NCBI GenBank assembly: GCA_934502885.1
Contig: CAKSUT010000010.1
Coordinates: forward strand, 19,307-83,306
Reading direction: 5' to 3'
Source of the DNA: an uncultured Eubacteriales bacterium
Lineage (GTDB): Bacteria > Bacillota > Clostridia > Oscillospirales > CAG-382
Length of the DNA: 64,000 bases
In this document: piece after piece, positions 39,759-63,669 of the stretch
Numbering within the stretch: position 1 is the first letter of the stretch
Layout of the letters: each line of letters starts with the position of its first letter
Program-made: the position numbers and the translations under genes
Notes under the pieces: model-generated
What the model saw: the letters and a program-made list of their open reading frames with translations, nothing else
Database searches by the model: none
What the model was told of the DNA's origin: nothing

Positions 39759-39776
39759 TTGAAAAAGAATAAAAAG

Positions 39777-39812: not shown

Positions 39813-39879
39813 TCAATATGAGAGTGTCACAGGTTGCATACCGTTACAAACTTCGCGCTGTGCGACTTTCCGTCCCGGG

Positions 39880-39963: not shown

Positions 39964-39999
39964 GCGCGGCATTTCCCTTGAAATTTAATAAAATATATG

Positions 40000-40028
40000 T
40001 AGATAAGATACCGAAAGTGTGGTATAAT
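40000..40028 (+). promoter_or_regulatory. Extended -10 promoter upstream of ychF
   Basis: TGGTATAAT (40020-40028) with a weak -35 TAGATA 17 nt upstream. Confidence 0.5.
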
Positions 40029-40086
40029 CTGCAAGGACGGTTTCGCGAACGGAACCATGAAGGAAAGTATTCAAGGAGATGCAAAT

Positions 40087-41657: not shown

Positions 41658-44588
41658 TCAGCCGTCGATGACAAGGAATTCCGAGCCATTGTCTCCGAGT
41701 GCTTCGAGCCTGTCGCGGATATCGGCGGAGGCAAGGAAGACCTGACCGTTTCTTCCGGCAAATACCGGAAGTCCCCTTCCCTGAACGAAAATGTTGTCGG
41801 TGTATACCGCAAGACTTCCCCCGTCGTTGCCTGCGGTGATAAGCCTGTCGGGCGAACGGTCAAGTATGTTGCTCCGAACGACGTAATTCTTCGTCGCTTT
41901 CGTCATGCCGCCGTTCCTTATGAGCGCCGCAAGACCGGTGTCGGGACGGAAATCAAAGCCGAAGCCGCCGCAGGTGCGGAGCAGGTTGTTCTCAATCGTG
42001 ATGTCCTCGTGAACAGAACCTGCCGTCTCGTCCGCTCCGACGAAAATCTCAATGCCGTAAACGCACCTCTCGGCAACGTTGCCGCGGTAAACGATGTTTC
42101 TGTCCTCTACCTTGTCCGTTTTAGCCGACTGATGCGTCATCGCCGCATCGTAAATGTCGTGCATATAGCAGTTTTCAACCGTGAAATCAACCGCTTCACC
42201 GTAAATCTGAACCGCGTTGCCGTAGGCGGTCGGCCATGTCCTGCCGTTGTAGCCGGCGTCGAACTGCACAGAGCCGCCGATGAAGTAAAACTCGCAGTTG
42301 CGGACGGTAAGTCCGTGCGCCGACGCCGCACCTATTCCGTGAGAACCGGTGTAGGCAAGCGTGAGTCCGTCAATCGTCACGTTCTCCGACGTGCCGCCGA
42401 ACGTGAATATGTGTCCTTTCTCGGCAAACTCAATATCGCCGTAAATCTCACCCGGGTTGCCCTTTTCGCACCTGAGATATACCTTGCCCGACTTGTCGTG
42501 TACAAACGAAAGATCGTCGGTGAGATTCTTGTAACTGTCAAACGAGCGCTTCTTTCTTGCGTCGAGGTGCTTTCCGTCCTTCTCGGTCGTGACGTAAACC
42601 TTGCGTGCCGCCGTGCCGTCGAGGACTATGTTTCCGACGTCCTCGGAGACGCTTTCCGCATACTCCCAGATTCCGTCTGCGTCGGTCTTTTTCCAGAGAG
42701 AGGCGTCCGCACTGTTCTTGCCCCAGCCGAAAATATTCGGCTTCGCACCGTCGCCGTATGCGGAGTAGGTCACGCCGCTCTTCGCCAATATGTGTCCTCG
42801 GAATGTGTCGCCTCTTCTGAAAAGTACGGCGTCGCCGGAGGCTATTTCCGCAGAGTTCGCCTTGGAGAGCGTCTTCCATGCGGTCGCTTCGGTGAGTCCG
42901 TCAGCACTGTCGTCGCCGTCGGCACTGATATAATACTTCTTTCCCGTTACGGAAACCTCGGATTTTGCCGCTCTTATTTCGGCAATGCGCTTTTCCGTCA
43001 CAAGGTCAATACCCTCGAGAGAAGCACTCGGAGTGAGTGTGGGAAGCGCCGTGCGAAGCTCCTTTATGTACTCCGACGCATTCTTTGCGTTCTCGGAGAG
43101 TGCAAATGTCTTTGTGTCCATATTTACGCTCCATACCTGCTTGCCGTCAACAGTTTCCGACGACGAAGCGGCGATAATATTGTTCTTTGCCCAGTGGGTC
43201 GAAATGTCGGAGAATTTGTTCGCAAAGTCCGCACCGTCAACTGTCTTTCTGCCGAGAAAGCGGTCGATTATCGTCACAAACTCCGCTCTCGTTATCGTGC
43301 CGTCGGGGCGGAAAGTGCCGTCGCTGTAGCCGTTTACGATGCCGGCCGAAGTAAGCGAATATATTTCGGCTCTGCCGGTTTCACGCTTTACGTCGGAAAA
43401 GTCCGCAATGCGGTACGCCGCAAAATCGCCTATACCGTAAATGAGTCTGCAAACCTCTTCACGTGTTATCGGCTGTGTCGGGAACACCTTGCCGCCGCGC
43501 ACGAACGACTCGAGAAGTCCGAGGTTTTCCAGAAGAGCGATGCTGTCGTGATACCATGCGCCGCTCTCTACGTCTGAAAGCTCGCTTGTGAATTTTTCGG
43601 TGCCGTCGGTCACAATGAGACGTGAGATTATCGCCATAGCCTCGGCACGTGTTATTGTGTTCTGCGGACGGAAAGTACCGTCGGAATAGCCGTTGATGAA
43701 TGCGCCGTCGGACTTTACGGTTATCTTACTTTCCTCCGCAAGGGTCGGATCATACGGCTTTACCGTGTCAAACGCCGTAAACCAGCTCTCTTTTGCGTCG
43801 GCATACCGTGAAACGTCAAGCACACGCTCACCCTCGACGTTGCCTTCGTAGTCTTCGCCTCGGCAAGCACCCACCGTGCCGCCCGTGATTGTGACGTATG
43901 AATTGCCCTTGACGTTCTTGTCCGTGACGCCGGAGCCGTTGTTGCAGCCGCCGTTTACCGTGGCTACCGTGCCGCCTTTTACCGTGATGTTGGTATTGCC
44001 GAGAACGTTTCCGTTGCGGCTTCCGCCGCAGATGAGGGTGTATGTTCCGCTGTATACAACGATATTCGTGTCGCCCGGAACCTCATAACCGCCGTCGCCG
44101 CCGCCTCGAATGCAAAGGTCGGTTGTGACCTCGTCGTCTTTGCGCACGACGGAAATTCCGCTGCCCATTATGAGTCTGTGTCCTCTGGCGTTTATGAAAC
44201 GGTAGCTTGAGGGGAGCAGGAGTGTTATGTGCTCTATTCTGAGGTCGCCGCCGATGTGGAGCGAGCTTTCAAGCTCAAAGACCGAGTCGTCGCCGAGACC
44301 TGTTATCGTGATTCCGCCCATATCGCCGCCGTCGGAAACCCACTTTATTCCGTCGGGATTCGACGCCTTATCGACGACAACCACCGTGCCGCCCTGCGTA
44401 CCGAGCAGTTCAAAGGCTTTGTCAAAAGTCGCGACAGGACTTTCGGCGGAGAGCCCGTCGTTTGAGTCACTGCCGTTTGCATCGATATAAACGATGTCTG
44501 CGTCGGTTTCGTCTGCGGCAAAGGCAAACGGCGTCAATGTGATGAGTAATGCGAGCAAAAGCGCCGCAATGCGGAGTTTTCTTTTCAC
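41658..44588 (-). CDS. Secreted SLH-domain surface protein with N-terminal beta-solenoid-like domain and C-terminal beta-helix domain (paralog 3)
   Basis: 976-aa ORF with a GTG start after GAAAGGGG, the signal peptide MKRKLRIAALLLALLITLTPFAFA, three SLH motifs, and a C-terminal domain homologous to paralogs 1, 2 and 4 (KKYYISADGDDSADG..FRRGDTFRG). Confidence 0.85.
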   Translation of the reverse strand: MKRKLRIAALLLALLITLTPFAFAADETDADIVYIDANGSDSNDGLSAESPVATFDKAFELLGTQGGTVVVVDKASNPDGIKWVSDGGDMGGITITGLGDDSVFELESSLHIGGDLRIEHITLLLPSSYRFINARGHRLIMGSGISVVRKDDEVTTDLCIRGGGDGGYEVPGDTNIVVYSGTYTLICGGSRNGNVLGNTNITVKGGTVATVNGGCNNGSGVTDKNVKGNSYVTITGGTVGACRGEDYEGNVEGERVLDVSRYADAKESWFTAFDTVKPYDPTLAEESKITVKSDGAFINGYSDGTFRPQNTITRAEAMAIISRLIVTDGTEKFTSELSDVESGAWYHDSIALLENLGLLESFVRGGKVFPTQPITREEVCRLIYGIGDFAAYRIADFSDVKRETGRAEIYSLTSAGIVNGYSDGTFRPDGTITRAEFVTIIDRFLGRKTVDGADFANKFSDISTHWAKNNIIAASSSETVDGKQVWSVNMDTKTFALSENAKNASEYIKELRTALPTLTPSASLEGIDLVTEKRIAEIRAAKSEVSVTGKKYYISADGDDSADGLTEATAWKTLSKANSAEIASGDAVLFRRGDTFRGHILAKSGVTYSAYGDGAKPNIFGWGKNSADASLWKKTDADGIWEYAESVSEDVGNIVLDGTAARKVYVTTEKDGKHLDARKKRSFDSYKNLTDDLSFVHDKSGKVYLRCEKGNPGEIYGDIEFAEKGHIFTFGGTSENVTIDGLTLAYTGSHGIGAASAHGLTVRNCEFYFIGGSVQFDAGYNGRTWPTAYGNAVQIYGEAVDFTVENCYMHDIYDAAMTHQSAKTDKVEDRNIVYRGNVAERCVYGIEIFVGADETAGSVHEDITIENNLLRTCGGFGFDFRPDTGLAALIRNGGMTKATKNYVVRSNILDRSPDRLITAGNDGGSLAVYTDNIFVQGRGLPVFAGRNGQVFLASADIRDRLEALGDNGSEFLVIDG

Positions 44589-44736: not shown

Positions 44737-44787
44737 GTTACGAGGATGTCTCCGCCCGTCGGAGACCCTTCGTTCCCTCGCCTGTCA
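44737..44787 (-). repeat. Solo leader module of the repeat family, abutting the MFS stop codon
   Basis: The minus strand reads TGACAGGCGAGGGAACGAAGGGTCTCCGACGGGCGGAGAC. Its first 13 nt are identical to 57436-57448. Hairpin GTCTCCG..CGGAGAC at 44748-44766. Confidence 0.6.
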
Positions 44788-46984: not shown

Positions 46985-48690
46985 TTTATATAATTGAGAA
47001 TGGAGAATTGAGAATTGATGTCGAAAAACGCTGAAGCGTTTTTCGGCAATTGAGAATTGAAAGTGGAGAATGGAGAATTGATGTTGAAAAACGCTGAAGC
47101 GTTTTTCTTCATTAAAAAATTATATGGTGCGTATTTTGAGGCTGTGCGATAAAGGGAAAGCGGATTTTTGACGAGGGTATGGGTGTTTGAGGTAATACGA
47201 TTATTCCGAACCTCGTTGGTGTGTTGTAGGGAACGGGCTTGCTCGTTCCGAAAACCTCAGACAATTGCCAACATCGGATAATGCGCACTTGCAATAATCT
47301 TTTGCCGGTTTTCTACATGGTGACATACATAACCGTGCGTGCGGTTCTTGCGGACGGAGCAATCTACGCAGATGCTTCGCATCCTGTGTGTCCCTACGAT
47401 ACACCATGGAGAAAGTGCAAATCTCAAGCTTCGCACTACCCAAGAACCTTATCTTTGCGGAATTTAAACGTGGCGGCTTTTTCGTCGCTTTAAATTCCGC
47501 AAACGGTGTTTCCCACAAATTACTGTCCCAACAAAGCCTGATGCCAATGTTCCATTCGACCGAGACTTCGTCGAGGTTGAACGGAATATCCTCTGATACG
47601 CACAGTCCGCTTCATCTAAGTCGGCGACTTGCGTTTATGGTCGCCGACTTCGGCAGTGCCTTTAAATATAGTGCTTGTCCGACAGTCCCTCAGTCTGACG
47701 ACTACGTCGTGACAGCTCCGGAGGTTTCTTTGCAACCGGTTGCACAGGGGATGCCTCCGGAGTTGGCAGAGCCAACTCGAGAGTAAATTGCTTCGCAATT
47801 TCTCTCGCGACTTTGTCGCCTCCAATACACCCAAGAGGAAGTGCCAATCTCAAGCTTCGCACTACCCAAGAACCTTATCTTTGCGGAATTTAAACGTGGC
47901 GGTTTTTTCGTCGCTTTAAATTCCGCAAACGGTGTTTCCCACAAATTACTGTCCCAACAAAGCCTGATGCCAATGTTCCATTCGACCGAGACTTCGTCGA
48001 GGTTGAACGGAATATCCTCTGATACGCACAGTCCGCTTCATCTAAGTCGGCGACTTGCGTTTATGGTCGCCGACTTCGGCAGTGCCTTTAAATATAGTGC
48101 TTGTCCGACAGTCCCTCAGTCTGACGACTACGTCGTGACAGCTCCGGAGGTTTCTTTGCAACCGGTTACACAGGGGATGCCTCCAATGCTGTCCCCGAGA
48201 GAAAGAGCTTATCCGACAGTCCCTCAGTCAGCTTCGCTGACAGCTCCCCTTACACAGGGGAGCCTCGGCGTCTGCGACGCCTCCAATACACCCAAGAGCA
48301 AGTGCAAACCTCAAAATTCGCACAAACCAAAAAGCTCATCTTTCCGTAATTTGTCGTCGAACGAAGTGAGGTACAAATTTCGGGAACGGGAGAAGGTAAA
48401 AATTACATTCCCCGCAAAGCCTGAAGCCAACCTCATCTTCGACCGAGACTTCGTCGAGGTTGAACGGAATATCCTCTGATACGCACAGTCCGCCCCATCT
48501 AAGTCGGCGACTTGCGTTTATGGTCGCCGGCTTCGGTATATCCTCCGATTACACAAAAGACTTTTCATTTCAAAGCGATAGCTTTGAAATCGATAAAGTT
48601 CTTTTGGTACTTTTCTTTCAAGAAAAGTACACCCCCGTAAGCCCCTGCGGCGAGCAGCCCCCGTAACCTTCGCCGTCAGTGCCCCTCCGT
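46985..48690 (-). repeat. Hairpin-chain repeat array R6 (reverse orientation, about 1.7 kb, internally amplified)
   Basis: Starts with GAGAATG/GAGAATT heptamers and GAAAAACGCTGAAGCGTTTTTC hairpins. It ends with M2 (48567-48590), M1 GTACTTTTCTTTCAAGAAAAGTAC (48607-48630) and the C-rich complement of the leader. Confidence 0.85.
47415..48184. repeat. Tandem direct duplication (period 426 bp) inside R6, with a third diverged copy at about 48297-48540
   Basis: 47415-47758 and 47841-48184 are near identical, with about 3 mismatches by eye. This also shows as duplicated ORF-track peptides (MWETPFAEFKATKKPPRLNSAKIRFLGSAKLEI twice). Confidence 0.85.
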
Positions 48691-49051: not shown

Positions 49052-52000
49052 ATGGTAACACAAAACATGACAAGAAGAATCGTAAGCCTCCTCCTCTGCG
49101 TCCTCATGGCTCTCGGCTCGTTCGGCGTTTTCGCATTCGCCGCCGCCGACGACCTTGTGCTTGACTACGCAGACAATTTCTGCAGAGGCAACGTAGACAG
49201 ACACACTCTCTGCGTAACCGACATAAACGCCGAAAAGGACGGCAAGAAAGTTGTTAAGGTAACTCCTAACCCCGAAGGCGAGGGCGGAAGCCTCGGCATC
49301 AACCTCGACGCCTACGGACTCGACGGCAAGAAGATCGACCTCATCAAGTACAGATACGTCGTTATCGAGTACTACTACGAGACCCCCGAACAGCGTGCGA
49401 ACGGCCCCATGTTCTTCAACATGATGGGCAAGACCTCTCCGTTCTCCGGTCATGTCGGCGCATTCGCCAACGAAAAGCTCGAAGCCAATAAGTGGGCAAA
49501 GGCTACCTTTAATGTAGGCGACCTTGTCAAGGCAAAGCTCAAGGCGGACTATGACCCCAGCGCTCCCTACCTCTCGCAGGTTCATATTTACCCCTACGGT
49601 CAGGGCGTCAAGCCGACCGCTCTCACGGCAAACGATATCATGTATATCTCCACCATCACCTTCACCGCCGACAACCCCAACCCCGACCGTGAGTACAACC
49701 TCGCCTTTAACAAGGGCGGCAACGGCGTCGAGGGTGAGGATATTAAGCTCACCGCAAAGGGCGGCGAAGAGGTAACCATCCCCGAGTGTACCTATAAGTT
49801 CGGCAACAACGAATTTGCAGGCTGGTTTGCAGGCTCCAATACCTCCAAGCTCTATCAGCCCGGCGACAAGTACACAATGCCCGAGCACGACCTCGGCTTC
49901 ACCGCAATGTGGAAGATGAAGGTCGAAACTCCCGACGTAAAGTGCCTCCACTATCCCGATTACTACAACGGCGTCGTTGACGGAAGCAAGTTCGACGTTG
50001 TCCTCGAAGCCGGCAAGGCAACCGTCGGCGGTCTCGAAACCATCCGCTTCGTACCCAACCCCAATTCCGAAAAGCCCGATTACTTCGGCTTCGACGGCTG
50101 GAGCTACGGCGGCGCGCAGATCGACCTTTCGCAGTATAAGTACGCCGCAATCGTGTACTACTTCGGCACAAAGAACGACTACGGCGAAATCAGACCCGTT
50201 ATGCGAATACTCAAGAGCTCCGGCAATACCGTAACAAAGTCTCTCATGACCGAGGGTACACCTCTCGAATACGGCAAGTGGAGCTACTCGCTCTTCGACC
50301 TCAACGAGCAGGCACAGTACCTCACAGAGACTCCGAACCTTGTTCAGATGCACATTCTCCCGATAGGTGAAAAGCGCAAGGTAACAGAGCTTTCGGCCGA
50401 CGACGAGGTTTGCCTTTCCAAGATTGTGTTCATGAAGAACAAGCCCGATCCCAAGCTCTTCGCGGTACACACCGCATTCATCTCCGGCTACAGCGACGGC
50501 ACCTTCAAGCCCGACAAGACAATGACCCGTGCCGAGGCATGCACAATAATCACACGTCTTCTCACAAGCGAGAACACAATTAAGGGTAAGTATGAGTCGA
50601 AGTTTACCGACGTCGCTAAGGGCGAATGGTACTACGACAACATAGCATACCTCGAAAACAAGGGTATACTCGCCTCCTACTCCGGCACGTTCGAGCCTAA
50701 CAAGAACATCACACGGGCGGAGTTTGCGGAGCTTGTTTACAACATGGGACTCGCAAAGGACACCGGCAAGACCGTGACCTTCTCCGACGTTCCCGAAACG
50801 CACCCCAAGTATAAGGCGGTAATGGCGGCGGCATCGGCAGGTATCGTAGGCGGCTACGCAGACGGCACTTTCCTCCCCGACAGAACAATCACCCGTGCGC
50901 AGGTTGTTAAGGTAATCAACAATGCATACGGCAAGAAGGTTGCGAAGACGAAGGAAATCGCTCTCTTTGACGACACTCCTCTCTACACCGACCTTGCAGG
51001 CACGCACTGGGCATATACGGACATTATGGAAGCATCGATTAACCACGGCACCTGCGAGCAGGACGACAAAGGCGAGATTTGGTTCTTCGCAATAACCCCC
51101 GACGCAAAGCTTGACTACGCCTCCGGCAACGCAAAGGTAGCTGAGCTTGACAAGCTTGAAGCCGAGAGAATCGCCGAGATAAGAGCGACCAAGGACGAGC
51201 TTGCGGACAAGGTTACGGGTACCAAGTACTACGTTTCCTCCTCCACGGGCAACGACGACAACGACGGCAAGACTCCCGAAACCGCATGGAAGACAACCGC
51301 AAAGGTAAGCGGCGTTGCGTTCAAGAAGGGCGACGGCGTATTCTTCAAGAGAGGCGATATTTTCAGAGGCGGTCTCACAACGCGCGAATACACCTCCTAC
51401 GGCGCATACGGCGAAGGTGCGAAGCCGATAATCATGCTCAGCCCCGAGAACGGTGCGGGCGAAGAGAAGTGGACTCTCGTTGAGGGTACAACCGATATTT
51501 ACAAGTACCACATCGAGATGAACGACCTCGGCGGTGTTGTCTGCATGGACAAGGACGGCAAGGTTGTAAACTTCATGGAAAAGGTTTGCCTCTACAACGA
51601 CGCGAACGGCTACTACGACAACGCAAAGTCCTACAAGCACTACAAGGAAATTCTCGATTACATAAAGGAGCTTCCTGCCGAGAGCGGCGACGTTTGCGTA
51701 AACGGCAAGGTTTCCACAGACGTACTGAGATACAAGAGCGACATATACGTAAGATGCGCCGCAGGCAACCCGGGCAAGGTTTACGCCTCCATTGAGTTTA
51801 TAAACGGCGGAAGTGCGGTAATCTCCGGCAGAAGCAACGTAAATATAGACAACCTCGCACTCTTCTACGGATCACGCCACGGTATCGGTGCCGGCACGGT
51901 TCAGAATCTTGTTATCACGAACTGCGAGATAGGCTATATCGGCGGCGGCTACCAGAATTACGGCGGCACGACGATAGTGCGTTACGGCAACGGTATTGAA

Positions 52001-52579
52001 GTATACGGCGGCTGCGACAATTTTGTGATAGACAACTGCTATGTATATCAGTGCTACGACGCAGGCATCACGAATCAGCTCCAGAAGGGCGGCAGCGAGA
52101 ACTACACCGAGCAGAACGTAAAGTTCACGAACAATGTTCTCGTAGACAGCTGCTACAACATCGAGTACTTCATGGGCGTGAGCGACACGGGTCTTGCGAC
52201 GAGACTTCTCAAGAACATCGAGTATTCCGGCAACCTTATCCGCCGTGCAGGCTTCGGCTGGGGCAGAGGTGCAAACCCCTCCAATGCGGCTAACATCAAG
52301 GGTTGGGATCACTACAATATGTCCGAGAACTTCGTCATCAAGAACAACGTATTCGACCGTTCCAAGGGCGTGCTTCTCCACATCGGCGCAGGCACAATGG
52401 GATGGCTTCCGGCTCTCGAGGGCAACACCTACATTGAGCATCAGGGCAGAAACCTCGCTCAGTACGGTCAGAACCCCACGACGACCTTCAAGTACAACAC
52501 CGTAACCGAGGGTACTATCAAGGACACCTTCGGCGAAAAGAACCCCTCCGTTTACTTCCTCGAACCCGAAAAAAACTGA
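49052..52579 (+). CDS. Secreted SLH-domain / beta-helix surface protein (paralog 4) with distinct N-terminal CBM-like repeats and a Listeria-Bacteroides (Flg_new-type) repeat
   Basis: 1175-aa ORF with a signal peptide (alternative start MTRRIVSLLLCVLMALGSFGVFAFAAADD at 49067). It has the YNLAFNKGGNGVEGE..FAGWF..FTAMW repeat, three SLH motifs, and a C-terminal domain homologous to paralogs 1-3. Confidence 0.85.
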   Translation: MVTQNMTRRIVSLLLCVLMALGSFGVFAFAAADDLVLDYADNFCRGNVDRHTLCVTDINAEKDGKKVVKVTPNPEGEGGSLGINLDAYGLDGKKIDLIKYRYVVIEYYYETPEQRANGPMFFNMMGKTSPFSGHVGAFANEKLEANKWAKATFNVGDLVKAKLKADYDPSAPYLSQVHIYPYGQGVKPTALTANDIMYISTITFTADNPNPDREYNLAFNKGGNGVEGEDIKLTAKGGEEVTIPECTYKFGNNEFAGWFAGSNTSKLYQPGDKYTMPEHDLGFTAMWKMKVETPDVKCLHYPDYYNGVVDGSKFDVVLEAGKATVGGLETIRFVPNPNSEKPDYFGFDGWSYGGAQIDLSQYKYAAIVYYFGTKNDYGEIRPVMRILKSSGNTVTKSLMTEGTPLEYGKWSYSLFDLNEQAQYLTETPNLVQMHILPIGEKRKVTELSADDEVCLSKIVFMKNKPDPKLFAVHTAFISGYSDGTFKPDKTMTRAEACTIITRLLTSENTIKGKYESKFTDVAKGEWYYDNIAYLENKGILASYSGTFEPNKNITRAEFAELVYNMGLAKDTGKTVTFSDVPETHPKYKAVMAAASAGIVGGYADGTFLPDRTITRAQVVKVINNAYGKKVAKTKEIALFDDTPLYTDLAGTHWAYTDIMEASINHGTCEQDDKGEIWFFAITPDAKLDYASGNAKVAELDKLEAERIAEIRATKDELADKVTGTKYYVSSSTGNDDNDGKTPETAWKTTAKVSGVAFKKGDGVFFKRGDIFRGGLTTREYTSYGAYGEGAKPIIMLSPENGAGEEKWTLVEGTTDIYKYHIEMNDLGGVVCMDKDGKVVNFMEKVCLYNDANGYYDNAKSYKHYKEILDYIKELPAESGDVCVNGKVSTDVLRYKSDIYVRCAAGNPGKVYASIEFINGGSAVISGRSNVNIDNLALFYGSRHGIGAGTVQNLVITNCEIGYIGGGYQNYGGTTIVRYGNGIEVYGGCDNFVIDNCYVYQCYDAGITNQLQKGGSENYTEQNVKFTNNVLVDSCYNIEYFMGVSDTGLATRLLKNIEYSGNLIRRAGFGWGRGANPSNAANIKGWDHYNMSENFVIKNNVFDRSKGVLLHIGAGTMGWLPALEGNTYIEHQGRNLAQYGQNPTTTFKYNTVTEGTIKDTFGEKNPSVYFLEPEKN

Positions 52580-52593
52580 AAATAACAGTCTAT

Positions 52594-52631
52594 CCTCCCG
52601 AGCCGTCTGCGGCGGCTCGGGAGGATTTTTG
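52594..52631 (+). terminator. Rho-independent terminator after SLH paralog 4
   Basis: CCTCCCGAGCC-GTCTGCGGC-GGCTCGGGAGG followed by ATTTTTG. Confidence 0.85.
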
Positions 52632-52634: not shown

Positions 52635-53313
52635 GGGCGAGGGTCACGGGAGGTCTCCGACGGGCGTAGATTACGATGGTGTCCTTTTCTTGAAAGAAAA
52701 GGACCAAAAGAACTTCAAAAGCAAAGCTTACGCTTTGCAGGATGGGTGTCTTGGAGTGAGCGGGCGTAGCCGCCAGAGAAATTGCGAAGCAATTTACTCT
52801 CGAGTTGACCGTGTCAACTCCGGTGGCTCTGCCAACTCCGGAGGCATCCCCTGTGTAACCGGTTGCAGAGCAACCTATGGAGCTGGCACGACGAAGTCGT
52901 CGGACTGAGGGGCTGTCAAATCAGCACCATAATCCAAGAAAATACCGCGTTCGGTGCGCATATATGCGCGCCATAAACGCAAGTCGCCGAACGAAATGGG
53001 GCAAGGACTCATCTAATCGAATAGAATACGAAAGTCGGTCGCCATAAATTCAAGCGACCGACTTCGGTATTATCTCAGATAAGCACTGTCCAAAGGCTTC
53101 CCTTCGACCGAGGCGTTGCCGAGGTTGTTGTGCAGCAAGCTGCACGAAAGTAAATGCTTCGCAAGCTCGCATTTCTTTCCGCGTCCTACATAAGCTTAGA
53201 CTTAATCCTGCAAAACGCAGTTTTGAAATCGATAAAGTTCTTTAGCGAAAGCAACAAAGTTGCGTCGCCTGAAAGCAACTTTGTTGCGTCGCACGTTTCT
53301 TTCAAGAAAAGTA
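52635..53313. mobile_element. Hairpin-chain repeat R7: second copy bounded by inverted M1 ends, in a convergent spacer
   Basis: The left end CCGACGGGCGTAGATTACGATGGTGTCCTTTTCTTGAAAGAAAAGGACCAAAAGAACTT (M1 at 52681-52704) is the reverse complement of the R5 right end. A degenerate inverted M1 lies at 53293-53313. The interior is collinear with the reverse complement of R5 plus extra modules. Confidence 0.7.
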
Positions 53314-54564
53314 CATTCCCATCCCCTCGCACGCCTCGTTTCTGAGTCTCATGAGGGTAAGTCTGTTGCGGACGAGTGGGGAGTACTCGCAGATAAGGGG
53401 AAGCTTTTCGGACGGCACGCCGATGTCCTCAAGCGAGGACTTCATGCCGAGCCTTGAGCAGAGCGGCAAAAGCTCTGCGACGGTCGGTATTTCACCGACA
53501 ACCTCGCGGATTTCACTCCATTTGCTTTCAATAAGCTCTGCCGTAATACCGGCGCAGGCGTCGCTTTTGTTCTCGGTGATGATAGCCTCGGCAAGTCTTT
53601 CGCCGAAAAACGCGGCAATGTAATCGTCGCCGGGACGGCGGCAGTCGTGCCACTTGGGGCTTGTTTCGGAAAGTCCGTGATAAACCTTCGACGCAATGAG
53701 CGTGCCGACGCCGACCTTTTCTCCGTGAAGTGCGTCCGAGCTTGCGCCGAGACCGTCCGGGCGCATCTCGATGAGGTGCGATATGTGGTGTTCCGCGCCC
53801 GACGCACAGCGTGAGTTGCCGAGAAGCTGCATTGCGAGTCCCGAAAGGACAAGACCGTACATGAGCTTTTCGTAAGCGTGGGTTTCGCCTTTTGCAAGGT
53901 CTTCCGCAGCGGCGGTGACTTCTTTTGCGGCGTCAAGGGTCATGCGGTAAATGCTTTCGCAGAGGTATTCGCCGGTGAGAATATTGCCTATCCGCCACTC
54001 GGCAAGGGCTATGTATTTGCCTATCATGTCTCCGACTCCGGAGGCGGTGAGCCTTGCCGGGGCTTTCGAGATGATGTCAAGCTCCGCGACCACTATTTTC
54101 GGCGACACGGCGGTGAAGGTTTTTTTGAAGCCGTACCACGTCATTGCGGCGACCGACGAGCAGAAGCCGTCAACCGACGCCGCGGTCGGGCAGGAGGCGA
54201 ACGGAATGCCGAGTTTATACGCGGAATAGCGCGTGATGTCATGCACCGTCCCCGAGCCTACGGCGACAAGGTAGTCCGTGTCCTTCGGTATTCTTTCGAG
54301 AGCCATGGCGACTCCGTGTTCGTCGGCGTGGAGTCCGTCCGGCGGCAGGATTATCTCGCAGTCGGCTTTCGGTCTGCGGTCCTCCGCGGCGCGGTACGTG
54401 TTCTCGTCGTATATTGCCGCCGACTTTCCGTGAAGTCCGTGTTCTTTTGCGTAATCGGCGAAGCCGCGCATTGCTCCGCTCTCTATTACGCAGAATTCGG
54501 TCGTCATTGTGTGTTCGCGGCCGCACGCGCACGCACCGCTTAATCTCTTGCTGTCTGTTATCAT
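53302..54564 (-). CDS. AraM-like glycerol-1-phosphate dehydrogenase (iron-containing ADH / DHQS-like superfamily)
   Basis: 420-aa ORF with VAVGSGTVHDITRY, TAASVDGF, GVGDMIGK and HHISH..HGEKVG metal and NAD motifs, as in the G1PDH/AraM family. AAGGAG RBS. Confidence 0.75.
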   Translation of the reverse strand: MITDSKRLSGACACGREHTMTTEFCVIESGAMRGFADYAKEHGLHGKSAAIYDENTYRAAEDRRPKADCEIILPPDGLHADEHGVAMALERIPKDTDYLVAVGSGTVHDITRYSAYKLGIPFASCPTAASVDGFCSSVAAMTWYGFKKTFTAVSPKIVVAELDIISKAPARLTASGVGDMIGKYIALAEWRIGNILTGEYLCESIYRMTLDAAKEVTAAAEDLAKGETHAYEKLMYGLVLSGLAMQLLGNSRCASGAEHHISHLIEMRPDGLGASSDALHGEKVGVGTLIASKVYHGLSETSPKWHDCRRPGDDYIAAFFGERLAEAIITENKSDACAGITAELIESKWSEIREVVGEIPTVAELLPLCSRLGMKSSLEDIGVPSEKLPLICEYSPLVRNRLTLMRLRNEACEGMGMYFS

Positions 54565-54602: not shown

Positions 54603-55816
54603 TTACGATGGGTCTCCGACGCCTTCTTTTCTTGAAAGAAAAGAAGCAAAAGAACTTTTGCCGATTTCAAGGCTATCGCCTTGAAATGAAAAGTCTTTTG
54701 TATTGTTTGGAGAAATACCGCACGACATCGTCAACGACTCCGTCGTGAAATGGGCAAGACTCATCTTATCCGAGGTCGGAGCGTTCAACCTCGACGAGGT
54801 CTCGGTCGAAGGTGAGGTTGGCATCAGATTTTGTGGGGAATGTATCCGAACTTCTCCCGTTCGCAAAATTTATTGCGTGCTCAGCACACTTCGCACACGA
54901 TAAAATTTTACGAAGATATGGCTTTTGGGTGGTGTGCGTGATTGAAATGCGTACTTGCTCACGGATGTATTAGAGTGAGTCGGCGAAGCCGCTCACGAGG
55001 CTCCCCTGTGTAAGGGGAGCTGGCGGTGAAACCGCCTGAGGGGCTGTCGGATAAGCACTCTCTCAATGGTGTAGCATAGCAACTGCGAAGCTGACTGAGG
55101 GACTGTCGGATAAGCATTCTCTCCATGGCATTTTGTAGGGACACACAGGATGCGAAGCATCTGCGTAGATTGCTCCGTCCGCAAGAACCAAACGCACGGT
55201 TATGTATACCGCACCGTAGAAATGCGGCAAACGATTATTGCAAATGCGTATTATCCGATGTCGGCGGTTATCGGAGATTTCGGAACGAGCAAGCCCGTTC
55301 CCTACAAAATGTCAAAGAGGTTTGCAATAAAATCGTATTATCGCAAACATCAAAAAACTCGGATAAAAACTATAATCAACAGCCCCTCAGTCAGCTTCGC
55401 TGACAGCTCCCCTTGCACAGGGGAGCCTCGGCGACGAGGTCGCCTCCAATAATACCATGGAGATAGTACGAATTCTGAAAATCTCACCCCCAACACCCTC
55501 GGCGAAAATCCGGCATTCCGTTATCGCACACCCTCAAACTCCGCACCATTCAAATATTGAAGAAAAGCGAAGCTTTTCAACGTCAATTATGCATTATGCA
55601 TTATGAATTATGAATTCTGCCTTTCTTTCCCTTTGCCGCACACCCTCAAAGTCCGCACCATACAATTATTGAAGAAAAGCGCAGCTTTTCTACCTTTTCT
55701 CTTCACTCTTCACTCTTCACTCTTCTCTCTTAACTTGAAAAGCTCCGCTTTTCAACACCAATTTTCCATTCTCCACTTTCAATTCTCAATTCTTGAAAAG
55801 CGAAGCTTTGCTTTGC
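54603..55816 (+). repeat. Hairpin-chain repeat array R8 (forward, about 1.2 kb) between araD and the AraM-like gene
   Basis: GGTCTCCGACG, M1 variant CTTCTTTTCTTGAAAGAAAAGAAG (54623-54646), M2 variant ATTTCAAGGCTATCGCCTTGAAAT (54664-54687), then M3 through the heptamer tracts (55584-55617, 55698-55730). The terminal GAAAAGCGAAGCTTTG overlaps the araD 3' end. Confidence 0.85.
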
Positions 55817-56493: not shown

Positions 56494-56694
56494 TTTTTCT
56501 TTTCCGCCTCACTTTTTTTGCTTCGGCTGTTGACATTTCGTCCGCCGTCTGATATAATTATACCGTATTCTCATATTATTGCAATACTCGGCGCAAAAGG
56601 CGGTAAATGCGCAATGTTTTTCGTAAAACGCGCAAATTTTACCGTGAAATGAGCAGGACTGCGTTATGCGGCAAAGAAAGGGGAGCGGTATGTT

Positions 56695-57438
56695 TTGGAA
56701 AAGAAACGGCTGACCGACAGGCAGAATGAGATACTCGATCTTATCAACGACCACAGTTTTCTCACGGTGGCGAAGATAGCGGAGCTGACGTACACCTCGG
56801 AGTCGAGTGTGCGCAGGGATCTTGCGCGGCTCGAGAGTCTTTACTGCATACGGCGCACCCACGGCGGAGCGTGTGCGCTTGACGATGTGAACCGTCCGGC
56901 GAAGCTTGACGACCGCATGAACAAGAACACGCTTGCGAAGCGAGTGATAGCAAAAAAAGCCGCCGCTATGTTAAGCGACGGGCAGAGCATAATGCTTGAC
57001 AGTTCGACGACTGCCGGTTTTCTGATTCCGCACATAGCGAAGCTTCGCGACGTGACGGTATTCACGAACAACATGATAACAGCCGTGAACGCGGTGAATT
57101 TTTCGATAGACACGCACTGTCTCGGCGGTCATGCGATAGGCGGCAACGCCGTGCTTTCGGGCGAGGACACATATGCGGCGATAAGCCGTTTGCGGCCCGA
57201 CATACTGTTTTTCTCGTCGCAGAGCATAGACCGCGACGGTCTCATAACCGACCCGACGCCCGAGGAGAACTATGCGCGGCGGCTCATGCTCGAGAGTGCG
57301 CGCAAGCGTGTGTTCTTATGCGACAGCGGCAAATTCGGTTCGCGCTCGCTCTACGTGCTGACCTCGGCGGAAGACCTCGATGCGTGCGTCTTCGACACAC
57401 CTTGGGACGACTTCCGCGGCAAGTGCGAGGTGAAATGA
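56695..57438 (+). CDS. DeoR-family transcriptional regulator (TTG start), divergent from araD
   Basis: 247-aa ORF with the HTH LTVAKIAELTYTSESSVRRDLARLE and a DeoR C-terminal domain. GGGGAG RBS. Confidence 0.85.
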   Translation: MEKKRLTDRQNEILDLINDHSFLTVAKIAELTYTSESSVRRDLARLESLYCIRRTHGGACALDDVNRPAKLDDRMNKNTLAKRVIAKKAAAMLSDGQSIMLDSSTTAGFLIPHIAKLRDVTVFTNNMITAVNAVNFSIDTHCLGGHAIGGNAVLSGEDTYAAISRLRPDILFFSSQSIDRDGLITDPTPEENYARRLMLESARKRVFLCDSGKFGSRSLYVLTSAEDLDACVFDTPWDDFRGKCEVK

Positions 57439-58376
57439 CAGGCGAGGGCTTACGAAGGTACGGGGGGACGGGAGTGTCCTTTTCTTGAAAGAAAAGGACC
57501 AAAAGACGCAGGGTTATGTACTTTTCTTGAAAGAAAAGTACCAAAAGAACTTTATCGATTTCAAAGCTATCGCTTTGAAATGGAAAAGTCCTCGATATAT
57601 TAGAGAAAGTACCGCATTCGGTCGCCATAAATTCAAGCGACCGAATGAGATGAGGCAGGACTCATCTTATCCGAGGTCGGAGCGTTTAAGCTCGGCAACG
57701 CCTCGCTCAAAGGGAACATTGGCATCAGGCTTTGTGGGGACTGTAATCCGGGGCAACACCGTTTGCGGAATTTAAAGCGACGAAAAAGCCGCCACGTTTA
57801 AATTCCGCAAAGATGAGGTTTTTGGGCGGTGCGAAGCTTGAGATTGGCACTTCCTCTTGGGTGTTTCATGGAGGAGGCGAAGCCGCCAGAGAAATTGCGA
57901 AGCAATTTACTCTCGAGTTGGCTCTGCCAACTCCGGAGGCATCCCCTTGTGTAACCGGTTGCAAAGCAACCTCTGGAGCTGGCGGTGAAACCGCCTGAGG
58001 GGCTGTCGGATAAGCACTTTCTCAATGATGTAGCAGAAAAATTAAACAATCCCTCAGTCAGCTTCGCTGACAGCTCCCTTTACACAAGGGAGCCTCGGCG
58101 ACGGAGTCGCCTCCAATAATACCATGGAGGTAATACAAATTTCGCACAACCACAAACACCAATACCCTCGGCAAAAATCCGGCATTCCGTCAACGGCACA
58201 ACCTCTGACTCGCACCATACAAATTATTGAAGAAAAACGGCGCAAGGCGTTTTTCTACCACTTCTCTTCACTCTTCACTCTTCACTCTTCTCTCTTAACT
58301 TGAAAAGCTCCGCTTTTCAACCCCAATTCTCCATTTTCCATTCTCAATTCTCAATTTTTGAAAAGCGCAGCTTTCG
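57436..58376 (+). repeat. Hairpin-chain repeat array R9 (forward; used here as the reference copy)
   Basis: Fills the whole DeoR-HAD spacer, from the stop codon to about 35 nt before the HAD start. Module list is given in the findings. Confidence 0.9.
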
Positions 58377-58412: not shown

Positions 58413-59210
58413 ATGAATCTCAAAGAAAAGAAGCTGTTCTTACTCGACATGGACGGCACGATATATCTTGACAACGAGCTTTTCGACGGCACTGTGGATT
58501 TTCTTTCCAAGGTGCGCGGACGCGGCGGAAAGTACGTATTTATGACAAACAACTCGTCGAAGAGTGTGGACAAATACATCGGGAAGCTTGCGTCTCTCGG
58601 CATAGCGTCGGACGCCTTGGACTTTCTGACGTCGGTTGACGCGACGATTGCGTTTTTGAAGCCAAAGAATTACAGGAAGATTTACGCTCTCGGCACGGAG
58701 TCGTTCCGCGAACAGCTTTTGTCTGCCGGGCTTCCGGCGGTTGATTGTTTCGAGGGACGCGGAGAGGACATCGACTGTTTATGCATGGGCTTTGACACGG
58801 AGCTTTCCTTCCGCAAGCTTGAGGACGCCTGCATACTGCTCATGGGGCGGCCGGAGGTTGACTACATAGCGACGAACCCGGATCTTGTTTGTCCGACGTG
58901 GTACGGTTACGTCCCCGACTGCGGTTCGGTGAGCATAATGCTTGAGAACGCGACGAAACGCAAGCCGCGGTTTATCGGCAAGCCCGAGCCGGAAATGGCG
59001 TTATCGGCTATGGCGAAGTTCGGCTTCACGCCGGAGGAAACGGTTGTTGTGGGCGACCGCCTCTACACCGACATTGCCTGCGGAGTGAACGCCGGTATCG
59101 GCACGGCGTTTGTCCTGAGCGGCGAGGGTACGCTTGCCGACATCGAAAAGTACGGCGTTACTCCCGACCGCGTCTACAAAAACATACGCGAAATGGCGGA
59201 TGAGCTGTGA
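58413..59210 (+). CDS. HAD-IIA family sugar-phosphate phosphatase (NagD-like)
   Basis: 265-aa ORF with the LLDMDGTIY motif I, TNNSS motif II and GDRLYTDI motif IV. Confidence 0.85.
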   Translation: MNLKEKKLFLLDMDGTIYLDNELFDGTVDFLSKVRGRGGKYVFMTNNSSKSVDKYIGKLASLGIASDALDFLTSVDATIAFLKPKNYRKIYALGTESFREQLLSAGLPAVDCFEGRGEDIDCLCMGFDTELSFRKLEDACILLMGRPEVDYIATNPDLVCPTWYGYVPDCGSVSIMLENATKRKPRFIGKPEPEMALSAMAKFGFTPEETVVVGDRLYTDIACGVNAGIGTAFVLSGEGTLADIEKYGVTPDRVYKNIREMADEL

Positions 59211-59218
59211 AAACTACA

Positions 59219-61610
<2,392 letters not shown>

Positions 61611-61880
61611 TTATATTATACGTCCGCCCGTTTGTCAAGACCTTCGGATTTTTATTTACACAATGACTCAAAATGCTTTAACAACGCACCCGATTTGTAA
61701 ACCGCCGTTTACTGTTCGCGACGAAATTCACGTGAGAACCACCGTAATTAACAATCGCCTATGAGGTTAGTTTTTTGCAACAAGAAGTTAGTTTTCACCA
61801 TTGAATAAGAGGGCGGTATGTGGTATAATACAAATGAGAAATTGTAGGCTTTGACCGCACACAAGGAGATAGATAATACC

Positions 61881-62850: not shown

Positions 62851-63669
62851 CGACGCAGGGAGCTTACGGGGGCTGACGCCGCAGAACGACTGACAATTGA
62901 CGATTGACGATTGACGATTACGGAGCTGCTCGCCGCAGGGGCGTCTGCGACACGTTACTTTCTTAAAAGAAAGTAACCAAAGAACTTTATCGATTTCAAA
63001 GCTATCGCTTTGAAATGAAAAGTCCTTTACGCAGTTTGGAGAAAGCACCGTTCAACCTCGGCAACGCCTCGGTCGAAGGGGAGCAAGGACTCATCTAACC
63101 GAATACAGTACGGCGACCCGACGCCATATATGCAAGCGTCGGGTCGTGATTTTTTTGGCTTCAGGCTCTGTTGGGACTGTATCCGGACTTCTCCCATTCG
63201 CAAAATTTATTGCGTGCTTCGCACACGATAAAATTTTGCGAAGATGAGGTTTTTGGGTGGTGCGTTGTTTGAAGTTAGCACTTTCTTATGGGTGTTGTCC
63301 GGAGGTAGCGGAGCTACCGAGGCGCCCCTGTGTAAGGGGAGCTGGCGGCTTTGCCGCCTGAGGGGCTGTCAATATGTGATTATGTATACCTCCCCGCAGA
63401 ACCGCAACAATCGGTAAGCACCATACAATCAATGCAGAAAACCGCCTTTCGGCGGTTTTCGACCCTAACGTCGCGACACGAAGTGTCATGCGACATTTCA
63501 CATCGAGCGAAGCGAGATATTTCACGCATTCCGTTAGGAATGCATTTCACGTGTTCCGCAAGGAATACCTTTCACTTGAAAAGCAAAGCTTTGCCACAAG
63601 CTTTGCTTTTCTTCCTCTTCTCTTCACTTTTCCCTCTTCTCTCTTCACTTGAAAAGCTCCGCTTTTCAC
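62851..63669 (+). repeat. Hairpin-chain repeat array R11 (forward), in the convergent SGNH / SpoIIE spacer
   Basis: Leader with GACGATT heptamers (62893-62921), M1 variant GTTACTTTCTTAAAAGAAAGTAAC (62954-62977), M2 (62993-63016) and M5 CGACCCGACGC..GCGTCGGGTCG. The terminal TGAAAAGCTCCGCTTTTCA overlaps the SpoIIE stop. Confidence 0.85.

Follow-up and report, generated by a model that had tools for sequence, protein, structure and literature searches.

The DeoR-HAD spacer

What fills the 0.94-kb spacer between the DeoR and HAD genes (57436-58376), and how did related sequence come to stand between so many neighbouring genes? The DNA examined here is a 64,000-nt stretch (the window) from an uncultured human-gut member of the Clostridia. 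The spacer is occupied from end to end by a plus-strand array of hairpins, used here as the reference, in which a leader, a head, allele slots and a tail follow one another. The G-rich leader (CAGGCGAGGGCTTACGAAGGTACGGGGGG..., 57439-57475) begins at the DeoR stop codon. It is followed by the head (57476-57581), which consists of two copies of the palindrome M1 (57476-57499 and 57518-57541), the linker CAAAAGAACTTTATCG and the palindrome M2 (57558-57581). Slot 1 is filled by the hairpin allele ATTCGGTCGC-(11 nt)-GCGACCGAAT (57616-57646); other alleles stand there in paralogous arrays and in the orthologous array of a sister species. A 67-nt block (57648-57714) that is 100% identical in the sister-species orthologue precedes the D-stem slot, which carries allele V1 (57762-57811; 15-bp perfect arms with 20 nt between them). 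A second block of this kind (76 nt, 57810-57885) is the longest identical run in a 3.6-kb syntenic region.

The minihairpin run at 57886-58155 is missing as a whole segment from the sister-species orthologue. Its members include AAATTGC-GAA-GCAATTT, GAGTTGGC-TCT-GCCAACTC, GGTTGC-AAA-GCAACC, GGCGGT-GAA-ACCGCC, GTCAGC-TTC-GCTGAC, GCTCCCTT-TACAC-AAGGGAGC and GGCGAC-GGA-GTCGCC, and it also contains an inverted doublet (57975-58006 / 58046-58077). The tail includes a terminator-like A-tract/stem/T-tract hairpin (AGAAAAACG...CGTTTTTCT, 58231-58256) and, at 58264-58376, (CTCTTCA)x5 and (CAATTCT)x4.7 heptamer tracts that alternate with TTGAAAAGC-NNN-GCTTTTCAA hairpins. Perfect short-loop hairpins with a stem of at least 6 bp number 12 in the reference array, compared to 1.1 +/- 1.1 in 200 dinucleotide shuffles (maximum 5).

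Related arrays in the window

A first-pass annotation of the window had described more than 15 hairpins in this spacer, given their coordinates, and proposed that the same modules recur in either orientation in at least 11 intergenic regions covering about 13% of the sequence. This description holds. All of the hairpin coordinates were confirmed, the 12 perfect hairpins plus long-loop stems exceed 15, and BLASTN of 57436-58376 against the window gave collinear homologous pieces, on both strands, at the copies that it had listed. Following self-BLAST of the window, with the paralogues of an SLH gene set aside, family sequence amounted to 7.8 kb (12.3% of the window) in approximately 12 related non-coding arrays. 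These occupy most of the gaps between operons; all of the sizeable window ORFs tested are housekeeping genes. Hairpins of the type counted above occur at 9.4 per kb in the arrays versus 1.5 per kb in coding DNA, an approximately 6-fold difference, and the 22-mer AAGAACTTTATCGATTTCAAAG is found 8 times with up to three mismatches (0 expected by chance).

From the left end of the window, a plus-strand tail-type fragment (440-560; BLASTN piece 440-555) lies between rplQ and the following minus-strand gene, and a full minus-strand array (16957-17804) extends from the ROK stop codon to the S10-operon promoter. The divergent spacer between rpoB and an SLH-protein gene holds a plus-strand array (32145-32830; BLASTN piece 32145-32766). 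A short plus-strand tail-type fragment between two SLH paralogues (36699-36825), also reported in the first pass, matches family members at other loci. Two heads face each other in the convergent YchF/SLH-protein spacer (41182-41657; BLASTN piece 41182-41645). The solo leader reported at 44737-44787 is real: it stands directly after the stop codon of an MFS transporter gene, reads TGA-CAGGCGAGGG on the minus strand, and has a junction identical to that at the DeoR stop codon. The longest array (46992-48674, minus strand) contains a 426-bp tandem duplication (47409-48184, 1.8 copies, 98% identical). Two more facing heads are found in the convergent spacer between an SLH-protein gene and Fe-ADH (52637-53316), where a genuine terminator (52592-52626) precedes the left head. 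The plus-strand array at 54603-55809 is antisense to both of its neighbours (Fe-ADH and aldolase) and has a 52-nt inverted doublet with its units 331 nt apart (54996-55047 / 55379-55430). Two further plus-strand arrays lie in convergent spacers, one after HAD and facing CTP synthase (59233-59945) and one after a GDSL lipase gene and facing SpoIIE (62918-63668).

The first-pass view of the family as non-coding and as matching no named family is supported. Array ORFs have no Pfam match and are broken by frame-shifting indels between copies. The longest of them has only 31 similar clusters in a 5.8-billion-cluster protein database, all of which are array ORFs without domains. Small conserved peptides within the 100%-identical blocks were also considered and rejected, as indels interrupt the ATG frames in both the paralogues and the orthologue. 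At the gathering threshold, Rfam identified only the S10 leader in the whole window, and a search of the reference copy at E <= 5 produced only chance miRNA-like matches. The Rfam, plasmid and phage searches and the literature offer no explanation for the family, and no description of it was found in the literature. Remnants of group II introns were rejected because there is no Rfam match and the GAGAAATTGC-GAA-GCAATTT(A)CTCTC hairpin lacks domain V features.

A polar chain of slots

The arrays are polar chains in which a leader, a head, allele slots separated by conserved linkers and a tail stand in this order. The fixed module order with deletions and duplications that had been proposed is right, with the refinement that the order is one of slots, each filled by one of several discrete hairpin alleles. 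Consensus folding (RNAalifold on MAFFT alignments) missed the variable stems, the arms of which were misaligned, and each copy was instead folded alignment-free. The leaders of 22 heads consist of tandem (N)TTACGRGG-type units that begin 0-10 nt past a stop codon or immediately follow a native terminator; in most of them TTACG precedes the first hairpin by 8 nt. A G-quadruplex function for the leader was rejected, as the entire window contains only two canonical G4 motifs, both in the leader after HAD.

The head is the best-conserved portion among paralogous arrays. M1 exists in at least five stem variants, each perfectly complementary, and changes in M2 are compensated. In many copies, a TGnTAnAAT-like box after M2 may possibly represent an internal promoter of the head; this box is just 14 nt from TTGAAA, and a promoter scan makes no call there. 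Beyond the head, the ATTCGGTCGC...GCGACCGAAT hairpin type is found in slot 1 or in slot 2, depending on the copy. At least six discrete D-stem alleles recur over loci and genomes, along with chimeric recombinants in which the arms no longer pair. Tails consist of GAAAAGC-NNN-GCTTTTC hairpins alternating with heptamer tracts. The heptamer unit varies by tract (CTCTTCA, CAATTCT, AATTATG, ATTATGC or ACGATTG) and such tracts are placed in the tail and sometimes in the leader. Overall, 147 distinct hairpins were identified, with unrelated stems and without a common flanking tetranucleotide. Most are single, and only one module forms inverted doublets (39-331 nt apart).

Array variation in strains and sister species

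The sister species is 62.5% identical to the window at 4-fold degenerate sites (37% neutral divergence). The same four spacers are occupied by arrays in both species, and the identical 67- and 76-nt blocks of the reference array outrun any identical run in the flanking genes. Exact matches of 40-76 nt connect arrays of the two species, non-orthologous arrays included. Sister-species arrays have 6-21% of their 25-mers in common with window arrays, and window arrays share 9-29% with one another (the tail-type spacer at 316-672 has none in common with the other window arrays). The module pool is thus nearly identical in the two species, from which we infer that copying outpaces point mutation and that the two sister species also exchange modules. 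Because the long exact matches also join non-orthologous arrays, this identity is a property of the allele pool rather than of the locus.

The differences observed comprise one replaced tract, an indel of a 29-nt hairpin, a deletion of 270 bp and the 426-bp duplication. The replaced tract was identified within one species: contigs L128 and L129, elsewhere 99.7% identical, differ over approximately 330 nt in a gene-conversion-like manner, with the slot-2 hairpin and D-stem alleles swapped and the 29-nt hairpin added. The 270-bp deletion is in the sister-species orthologue of the reference array and its end points lie within similar hairpins. Present arrays change in three ways: through tandem duplication, through the loss of sequence between similar hairpins and through non-reciprocal replacement, in which a tract is overwritten with sequence of another array. 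Synteny breaks coincide with arrays in contigs L002 and L011. The conserved linkers would supply homology for tract exchange, and exchange of this kind would generate combinatorial mosaics in which stems seem to covary without stepwise compensatory mutation. The apparent covariation of the stems is indeed mostly the recombinational swapping of discrete hairpin alleles.

On balance, we think it probable that the DeoR-HAD spacer belongs to a family of non-coding mosaic hairpin arrays that is specific to the clade, and that these arrays are selfish or near-neutral and are spread by recombination. Such arrays would have filled nearly every inter-operon spacer. Candidate routes for their arrival in new spacers are an enzyme that works strand-specifically on hairpins of single-stranded DNA (HUH / Y1, as in REP, REPIN and IS200/IS605) and plain recombination; no transposase, copying enzyme or master element was identified in approximately 180 kb of clade sequence. 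For the host, the likeliest consequences would be that gene 3' ends are insulated and capped by hairpins, that rearrangements are promoted and that assemblies are broken. The four shared spacers and the 100%-identical blocks could also reflect purifying selection on a host function, which is considered below.

Hairpins of probable DNA type

The hairpins themselves have features of structures that fold as DNA. Among 109 distinct hairpins with 901 Watson-Crick pairs, internal G:T mismatches (15) are no more common than A:C mismatches (14), with no excess of wobble pairs. Triloops are found in 177 of 298 hairpins, and on the oriented top strand GAA loops outnumber TTC loops by 59 to 4. When only distinct stems are counted, the figures are 20 to 3, and 34 to 11 for GNA versus its complement TNC. 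Of 45 distinct tetraloops, only four are GNRA and only one is UNCG. The heptamer GCGAAGC occurs 50 times in the window (18.4 +/- 4.7 expected), and 33 of these occurrences fall within the 12% of the sequence made up of arrays, a 13-fold enrichment. DNA minihairpins of the GCGNAGC type greatly exceed their RNA counterparts in stability (PMC13037366), and perfect Watson-Crick palindromes with C-GAA-G-type triloop caps would be extraordinarily stable DNA minihairpins. Both strands of the arrays fold equally well, yet the loops are strand-asymmetric. Judging from these sequence statistics, the hairpins appear to be of DNA type, folding in the single-stranded DNA of one strand. Inheritance from one ancestral hairpin by tandem duplication, instead of selection, could partly account for the asymmetry.

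These observations allow a reading that we regard as possible although unlikely: that the arrays are a new class of genome component, built of self-homogenising cassettes of single-stranded DNA minihairpins that are copied among hundreds of landing pads in intergenic DNA, and from one sister species to another, at a rate above that of point mutation. The driver of such a cassette system would be strand-specific: an enzyme for single-stranded DNA hairpins, of the HUH type or another, or else a bias in uptake or recombination. Arrays anchored at gene 3' ends could then insulate transcription units.

Distribution and the search for a mobile element

The family is restricted to a tiny clade. Contig L140, followed up from a weak match to an array ORF as a candidate for a more divergent relative, carries ordinary members at 77-85% identity, and in the next relative (HAD protein 82% identical) the spacers on one 3.5-kb contig are compact and contain no family sequence. 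In the plasmid and phage collections, the only match is a single 56-nt module. Carriage by a phage or plasmid vector was rejected on the basis of searches in which two family-specific patterns had no match in IMG/VR and two further long arrays had no match in PLSDB. The 48 metagenome and 68 viral matches to the degenerate 22-mer AAAGAACTTTRYCGATTTCAAR nearly all correspond to one unrelated gut-phage coding sequence (..KKNFADFKWHW..), and the remainder are in unrelated coding contexts with nothing else in common with the family. A match to JAGGVT01 in a genome scan is a chance 23-mer. The sole module with relatives beyond the clade is the right-hand doublet unit of the reference array (58048-58104); in Vescimonas fastidiosa, the doublet-forming module is found in a spacer, and the sequence of that spacer has at least 37 matching places in an 861-kb replicon.

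This last module is part of the case for classical clusters of non-autonomous transposons (MITE, PATE or REPIN) that are mobilised in trans by, for example, an HUH / Y1 protein (RAYT, IS200/IS605), an origin that we consider unlikely. Its inverted doublets are REPIN-like, the hairpins are strand-specific and of DNA type, the alleles of a sub-family are near-identical over loci and species as expected for recently copied elements, and TTACG is present in each leader shortly before the first hairpin. However, when array ends were compared no terminal inverted repeats were found, and the gene junctions examined showed the tandem G-rich leader with no target-site duplication noticed. The first-pass report that the window contains no transposase stands, and neither RAYT, TnpA nor TnpB was found in the window or in the approximately 180 kb of clade contigs, nor was a right-end counterpart. 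Array orientation tracks local gene direction, not replication direction. Furthermore, the differences between strains and species are replaced tracts, duplications and deletions, and clean presence or absence of unit-length copies was not seen among them.

Possible transcription and RNA structure

The arrays might instead be structured RNAs, either co-transcribed 3' UTR or intercistronic chains that act in termination or protect the upstream mRNA, or independent long non-coding RNAs. Heads or leaders lie within 0-100 nt after the stop codon or terminator of a co-oriented gene in 19 of 24 cases, although in convergent and divergent spacers the orientation bias is largely forced by geometry and the informative co-directional spacers stand at only 6 to 1. 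Canonical promoters were found outside the arrays. No promoter could be recognised for HAD itself, so read-through transcription of the DeoR-HAD array is probable. Folding energies are very strong, linkers are kept while stems vary as in real RNA families, and the tail holds a terminator-like hairpin. Pneumococcal BOX elements provide a precedent, being transcribed and affecting co-transcribed genes (PMC3049150).

Despite these points, an RNA function appears improbable. G·U pairs are not in excess over A·C, GNRA and UNCG loops are nearly missing while C-GAA-G triloops prevail, and the reference array folds as well on the bottom strand as on the top (z-scores -7.7 and -8.3, respectively). Terminator-like sites are not enriched (22 versus 16.2 +/- 3.4 expected), the array at 54603-55809 is antisense to both neighbours, and Rfam contains no match. 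Alleles are also freely swapped at a single locus, with pairing lost in some recombinants.

Possible host selection, and assembly quality

REP/BIME elements bind gyrase and IHF, and the arrays could similarly be DNA elements maintained by purifying selection, such as insulators or sites for extrusion or for the binding of nucleoid, topoisomerase or priming proteins. Hairpins of the GCGAAGC type are known to serve in recognition both at single-strand initiation sites and in phage N4 promoters (PMC13037366). The occupation of the same spacers in both species and the 67- and 76-nt blocks, conserved despite 37% neutral divergence, are in keeping with this explanation. We nevertheless judge it decidedly improbable: long exact matches also join non-orthologous arrays, alleles are replaceable at a locus, whole segments can be deleted, the family is limited to a tiny clade, and the contig from the next relative lacks it.

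The weakest alternative, that the arrays are assembly artefacts or mere low-complexity similarity (both raised in the first-pass annotation as ways in which the family might prove spurious), can be dismissed as extremely improbable: many public contigs terminate within arrays and one MAG contig has an altered gene order across an array, but independent contigs reproduce the arrays (over 5,979 nt that take in three arrays, L001 of an independent assembly matches the window at 100% identity; four more, which carry the HAD gene with the edges of the arrays on either side, match it at 99.6-100%), sister-species arrays from two projects are 99.7% identical save for one replaced tract, and the alignments are long, collinear and specific, with key motifs expected zero times by chance.

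Comparison with known repeat families

The resemblance to BIME/REP clusters, BOX and Correia-type elements noted in the first pass points to the right neighbourhood, and the family is best read as an undescribed, clade-restricted variant of mosaic intergenic repeats that is denser than, and built differently from, REP/BIME, BOX and NIME. Like REP, BIME and REPIN sequences, the arrays are extragenic, hairpin-forming mosaics of a few unit types with fixed linkers that cluster after gene 3' ends and in convergent spacers, keep their consensus between related species and act as recombination substrates; one module also forms inverted doublets. Unlike REP/BIME, they have neither a single 20-40-nt consensus nor a conserved 5' GTAG. 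Dozens of distinct hairpins are instead arranged in a fixed polar order over 0.5-1.7 kb, with C-GAA-G triloops, G-rich leaders and heptamer tracts, and coverage is 12% compared to about 1%. The REPIN/RAYT system also includes a RAYT gene flanked by the repeats; no RAYT was seen in the window or the approximately 180 kb of clade contigs.

Pneumococcal BOX elements are modular (boxA-boxB(n)-boxC) with a variable number of modules and strong secondary structure. They are limited to the species and its closest relative, seem to be parasitic with slow transposition, and give rise to spurious ORFs (PMC3049150). Together with RUP and SPRITE, BOX thus shares with the family a Firmicute host, modular and structured sequence, a narrow range and spurious ORFs. 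Compared by architecture only, the arrays described here differ in having many more module types, discrete slot alleles, greater length and density, and a DNA-type triloop signature rather than RNA structure. Nothing in the literature consulted or the searched libraries connects BOX with this family.

In NIMEs, RS blocks are flanked by dRS3, and these short conserved repeats are recombination points; the elements reach high density in a naturally recombining commensal. NIME and Correia sequences resemble the family as intergenic mosaics of interchangeable blocks between short conserved repeats, but the present arrays have neither a dRS3-like 20-mer nor a 26-bp terminal inverted repeat or TA duplication, and, in contrast to NIMEs, the blocks are hairpins themselves and polar order is kept. 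Cyanobacterial STRRs are likewise intergenic tandem heptamers with a unit that differs by tract, plus nested small hairpin repeats; these belong to another phylum, have other sequences, and lack the defined places that heptamers take up here in a larger ordered array. A further parallel is the d(GCGAAGC) minihairpin, with an identical heptamer core and, likewise confined to one strand, a GNA triloop with a C·G closing pair (PMC13037366). The known cases are single functional hairpins at phage and plasmid origins and promoters, whereas here there are hundreds of arrayed chromosomal copies.

Implications for the clade

If the window is representative, more than one-tenth of the genome of this gut bacterium would consist of one non-coding repeat system, and coverage of 12% is far above the levels of REP, BOX and Correia elements. 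The arrays mark rearrangement sites between strains and probably contribute to the breaking of the clade's public assemblies into 1-10-kb contigs that end next to genes. They also provide a clean natural case of stem "covariation" that arises through the swapping of whole alleles, a caution for covariation-based RNA discovery. The one-strand C-GAA-G signature and the cross-species allele pool point to single-stranded DNA and recombination biology that is undescribed for Firmicute chromosomal repeats. Vescimonas fastidiosa is cultured and, with its relatives of one module, may offer an experimental handle.

Hairpin arrays in the intergenic regions

The spacer between a DeoR regulator gene (56695-57438, + strand) and a HAD-IIA hydrolase gene (58413-59210, + strand) is occupied by a single chain of short hairpins (57436-58376), referred to here as the reference array. 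The first-pass annotation had claimed that copies of this chain recur elsewhere in the window, and BLASTN with the reference spacer recovered collinear homologous pieces, partly duplicated or deleted, from nine other spacers in both orientations. A small fragment (36699-36825) and a solo leader (44737-44787) on its list are likewise real, the long-loop stems that it described are present in the reference copy, and the finding as a whole is both genuine and well described. By self-BLAST, family sequence makes up 7.8 kb or 12.3% of the window, a figure that leaves out four SLH / beta-helix gene paralogues.

The hairpin content of the arrays is far above chance. The reference copy contains 12 perfect short-loop hairpins (stems ≥6 bp), compared with 1.1 ± 1.1 in shuffled sequences, and has folding z-scores of -8.3 and -7.7 for its two strands. 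Hairpins of this kind occur at 9.4/kb in the arrays versus 1.5/kb in coding DNA.

Alignments of 9 to 22 copies and a junction table show that the arrays are polar and have four parts: leader, head, slots and tail. The leader starts 0-10 nt past a stop codon or directly past a genuine terminator (such as that at 52592-52626) and comprises one to five tandem G-rich (N)TTACGRGG-type units, with a GTCTCCGACGGGCG hairpin in some copies and GACGATT heptamers in some. The head, which is the best-conserved part among paralogues, consists of the M1 palindrome, the linker CAAAAGAACTTTATCG and the M2 palindrome. Each slot is then occupied by a single hairpin allele out of several discrete ones, set between conserved linkers (GACTCATCT; GGCATCAG.CTTTGT.GGGAC; CCGTTCGC; GAAGATGAGGTT). 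For the long-armed D-stem slot (57762-57811 in the reference array), six or more alleles exist, each with a distinct pair of long complementary arms, and identical D-stem alleles are found again at different loci and in different genomes. In the tail, GAAAAGC-NNN-GCTTTTC hairpins alternate with tandem heptamers whose unit varies between tracts; one terminator-like hairpin lies here (58231-58256). Many heads also carry a TGnTAnAAT-like box approximately 14 nt past TTGAAA and followed by GGAG (57585-57600 and equivalent post-M2 positions elsewhere; for example, TGTATAAT at 41298-41305). This box, which the promoter scan did not call, might act as an internal promoter directed into the array.

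Position, polarity and neighbouring genes

Of 24 heads or leaders examined, 19 are found a short way downstream of a gene with the same orientation, and five point towards the 5' end of a divergent gene. Three convergent spacers contain a facing pair of heads; two such spacers belong to the window and the third to L002, a contig from a close strain. Much of this orientation bias is forced by geometry. Co-directional spacers are the only informative class, and the 6 to 1 head orientation found there is no more than suggestive.

Across the window's right half, 10 of the 13 spacers contain family sequence. The three array-free spacers are all short, and two of them, those covered by the promoter scan, carry perfect TTGACA-17-TATAAT promoters. 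Perfect or near-perfect promoters of this type, at 56530-56558 (+), 61610-61638 (minus) and 61801-61829 (+), occupy the only two array-free divergent spacers, and compact promoter regions appear to exclude arrays. Where arrays and promoters share a spacer, the arrays end first: the extended -10 promoter TGGTACAAT of the S10 operon (approximately 16884-16892, minus) is located between an array tail and the S10-Clostridia ribosomal-protein leader upstream of that operon (16801-16873, minus; Rfam RF03136, 47 bits). As the promoter scan detected no promoter belonging to HAD itself, transcription from DeoR probably continues through the reference array.

Within 20 kb lie the genes for four large SLH-domain / beta-helix paralogues (32973-36566, 36861-39758, 41658-44588 on the minus strand and 49052-52579), which are probably S-layer-anchored proteins of the cell surface, and arrays flank every one of these genes. 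Further SLH genes adjoin arrays in two other contigs (L132 and L135).

Relation to known repeat families

Like REP/BIME, BOX and NIME elements, the family is non-coding, hairpin-rich and modular, serves as a recombination substrate, is tolerated only between transcription units and is restricted to a narrow clade; for BOX, the comparison covered architecture only. It differs from all three in its ordered polar architecture, allele slots, one-strand C-GAA-G minihairpins, G-rich leaders, heptamer tracts, density and an allele pool common to two species. The REP consensus is absent and there is no Rfam model for the family, which belongs to none of the known families tested. The family is of interest mainly for how densely it occurs, for its DNA-hairpin signature and for the way that recombination reshapes it.

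We favour, with moderate confidence, the reading that the arrays are selfish or near-neutral DNA, now spreading and becoming homogenised through recombination from one array to another. Clusters of classical transposons mobilised in trans are an unlikely alternative: comparison of the array ends revealed no terminal inverted repeats, and no target duplications were noticed at the junctions read.

Probable DNA-type hairpins

A functional structured RNA would be in keeping with the strong folding and the probable transcription of the reference array, yet we consider it rather improbable. The stems are almost perfectly Watson-Crick paired: among 901 pairs in 109 distinct hairpins, internal mismatches comprise 15 G:T and 14 A:C, and the wobble tolerance that RNA helices would be expected to show is thus not evident. 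Triloops predominate among the loops, which display strong strand asymmetry with the arrays oriented (GAA 59 versus TTC 4). The asymmetry persists among distinct stems only (GAA 20 versus TTC 3, 14 with the exact GCGAAGC core; GNA loops 34 versus 11 for the complement), and only 5 of 45 tetraloops are GNRA or UNCG. The window contains 50 copies of GCGAAGC (18.4 ± 4.7 expected), 33 of these within arrays. The d(GCGNAGC) sequence is a classic, extraordinarily stable DNA minihairpin whose RNA version is much weaker (PMC13037366). Based on the Watson-Crick stems, the loop asymmetry, the GCGAAGC enrichment and this stability as DNA, we infer an adaptation of the hairpins to the single-stranded DNA state of one strand. 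If the arrays are selfish or near-neutral, an enzyme for single-stranded DNA hairpins may underlie both their first colonisation of spacers and their strand specificity, while present spread and homogenisation would proceed through inter-array recombination.

Changes within and between arrays

Within the longest array, a 426-bp module block is tandemly duplicated (47409-48184; 1.8 copies, 98% identical), which shows recent local expansion. The same stretch is also the one most at risk of assembly collapse. Deletion is seen in a sister species that shares the gene order and carries long arrays in the four corresponding spacers (HAD protein 93% identical; 4-fold degenerate sites 62.5% identical): in its orthologue of the reference array, the segment 57886-58155 is missing, with end points in similar GGCG..GCC hairpins. 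Two assemblies of this species are identical over Fe-ADH and the array head and 99.7% identical further on, but differ by a tract of approximately 330 nt, where other alleles replace the slot-2 hairpin and the D-stem and a 29-nt hairpin is added. Gene conversion between arrays would give such a pattern. Furthermore, two copies combine the D-stem 5' arm of one allele with the 3' arm of another, and pairing is lost. As duplication, deletion, tract replacement and chimeric D-stems are all observed, "compensatory" stem variation arises mainly from entire hairpin alleles being swapped.

Close strains differ in gene order across arrays (L002, L011). In L002, the HAD gene region is 99.6% identical, but a hexapeptide acetyltransferase follows HAD in place of CTP synthase and the post-HAD spacer (1259-1636 versus window 59211-59972) is only 377 bp, with two facing heads. 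In L011 (CAKSCN010000074.1), a contig of a closely related MAG, YchF has the opposite orientation to that in window 36819-41181 and is found immediately upstream of the second SLH gene. Arrays lie at both break points, and the altered order reflects either genuine rearrangement or sequences wrongly joined across repeats.

The two species have alleles in common. Over a 3.6-kb syntenic region, the longest identical runs (76 and 67 nt) are both in the spacer, compared with at most 38 nt in the genes, and exact 40-56-nt matches also connect non-orthologous arrays. Between 6 and 21% of 25-mers from sister-species arrays are found in 8 kb of window arrays, about half the within-genome value, while only approximately 2% would be expected for genes at ~85% identity (0.85^25). 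This would follow if every allele were very strongly constrained, if the species exchanged modules, or if modules were recopied from conserved master copies. Constraint of this kind would suit a host-selected DNA element, which we nevertheless think distinctly unlikely; copying and exchange are favoured over locus-specific function because alleles at a given locus are replaceable.

Source organism and distribution

The S10-Clostridia leader, SpoIIE and SLH proteins place the organism in Clostridia. Exact copies of the HAD protein were found on ENA and Logan human-gut contigs, Hadza samples among them, and most of these contigs terminate inside arrays a few hundred bases from the gene. With arrays recurring across separate assemblies, an artefact is extremely improbable. 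In 185,579 GTDB representative genomes, a family motif matched one species only, the uncultured Eubacteriales MAG CAKSCN01 (Hadza), which is 92-98% identical to the window in overlapping parts. The longest array-internal ORF resembles only 31 of 5.8 billion protein clusters, all without domains and all derived from ENA or NCBI assemblies. In other contigs of the clade, 17% of 102 kb is family sequence, a biased sample because these contigs were reached through repeats. On the one 3.5-kb contig of the next relative (HAD 82% identical), the spacers are compact and family sequence is absent.

Rfam, PLSDB, INPHARED and IMG/VR lack the family apart from relatives of one 56-nt module (58048-58104). 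A widespread human-gut phage family (L012-L127, 40-88-kb contigs from JGI metagenomes and IMG/VR) was rejected, as its conserved coding stretch ..LKKNFADFKWHW.. fits a degenerate family motif purely by chance. The 56-nt module matches three unannotated faecal "Bacteriophage sp." contigs and has 86% identity to an intergenic hairpin chain of Vescimonas fastidiosa MM35, only a distant relative (DnaK 72% identical). That chain (L137 3498-4167, L139; NZ_AP023416.1) fills a GC-rich spacer after hemW, and sequence from this spacer is matched at 37 or more sites across the 861-kb replicon. In a 50-kb sample of that replicon, 1.7% consists of repeats. Because this "plasmid" encodes dnaK, groEL, ftsH and EF-G, it is a chromid or a piece of chromosome.
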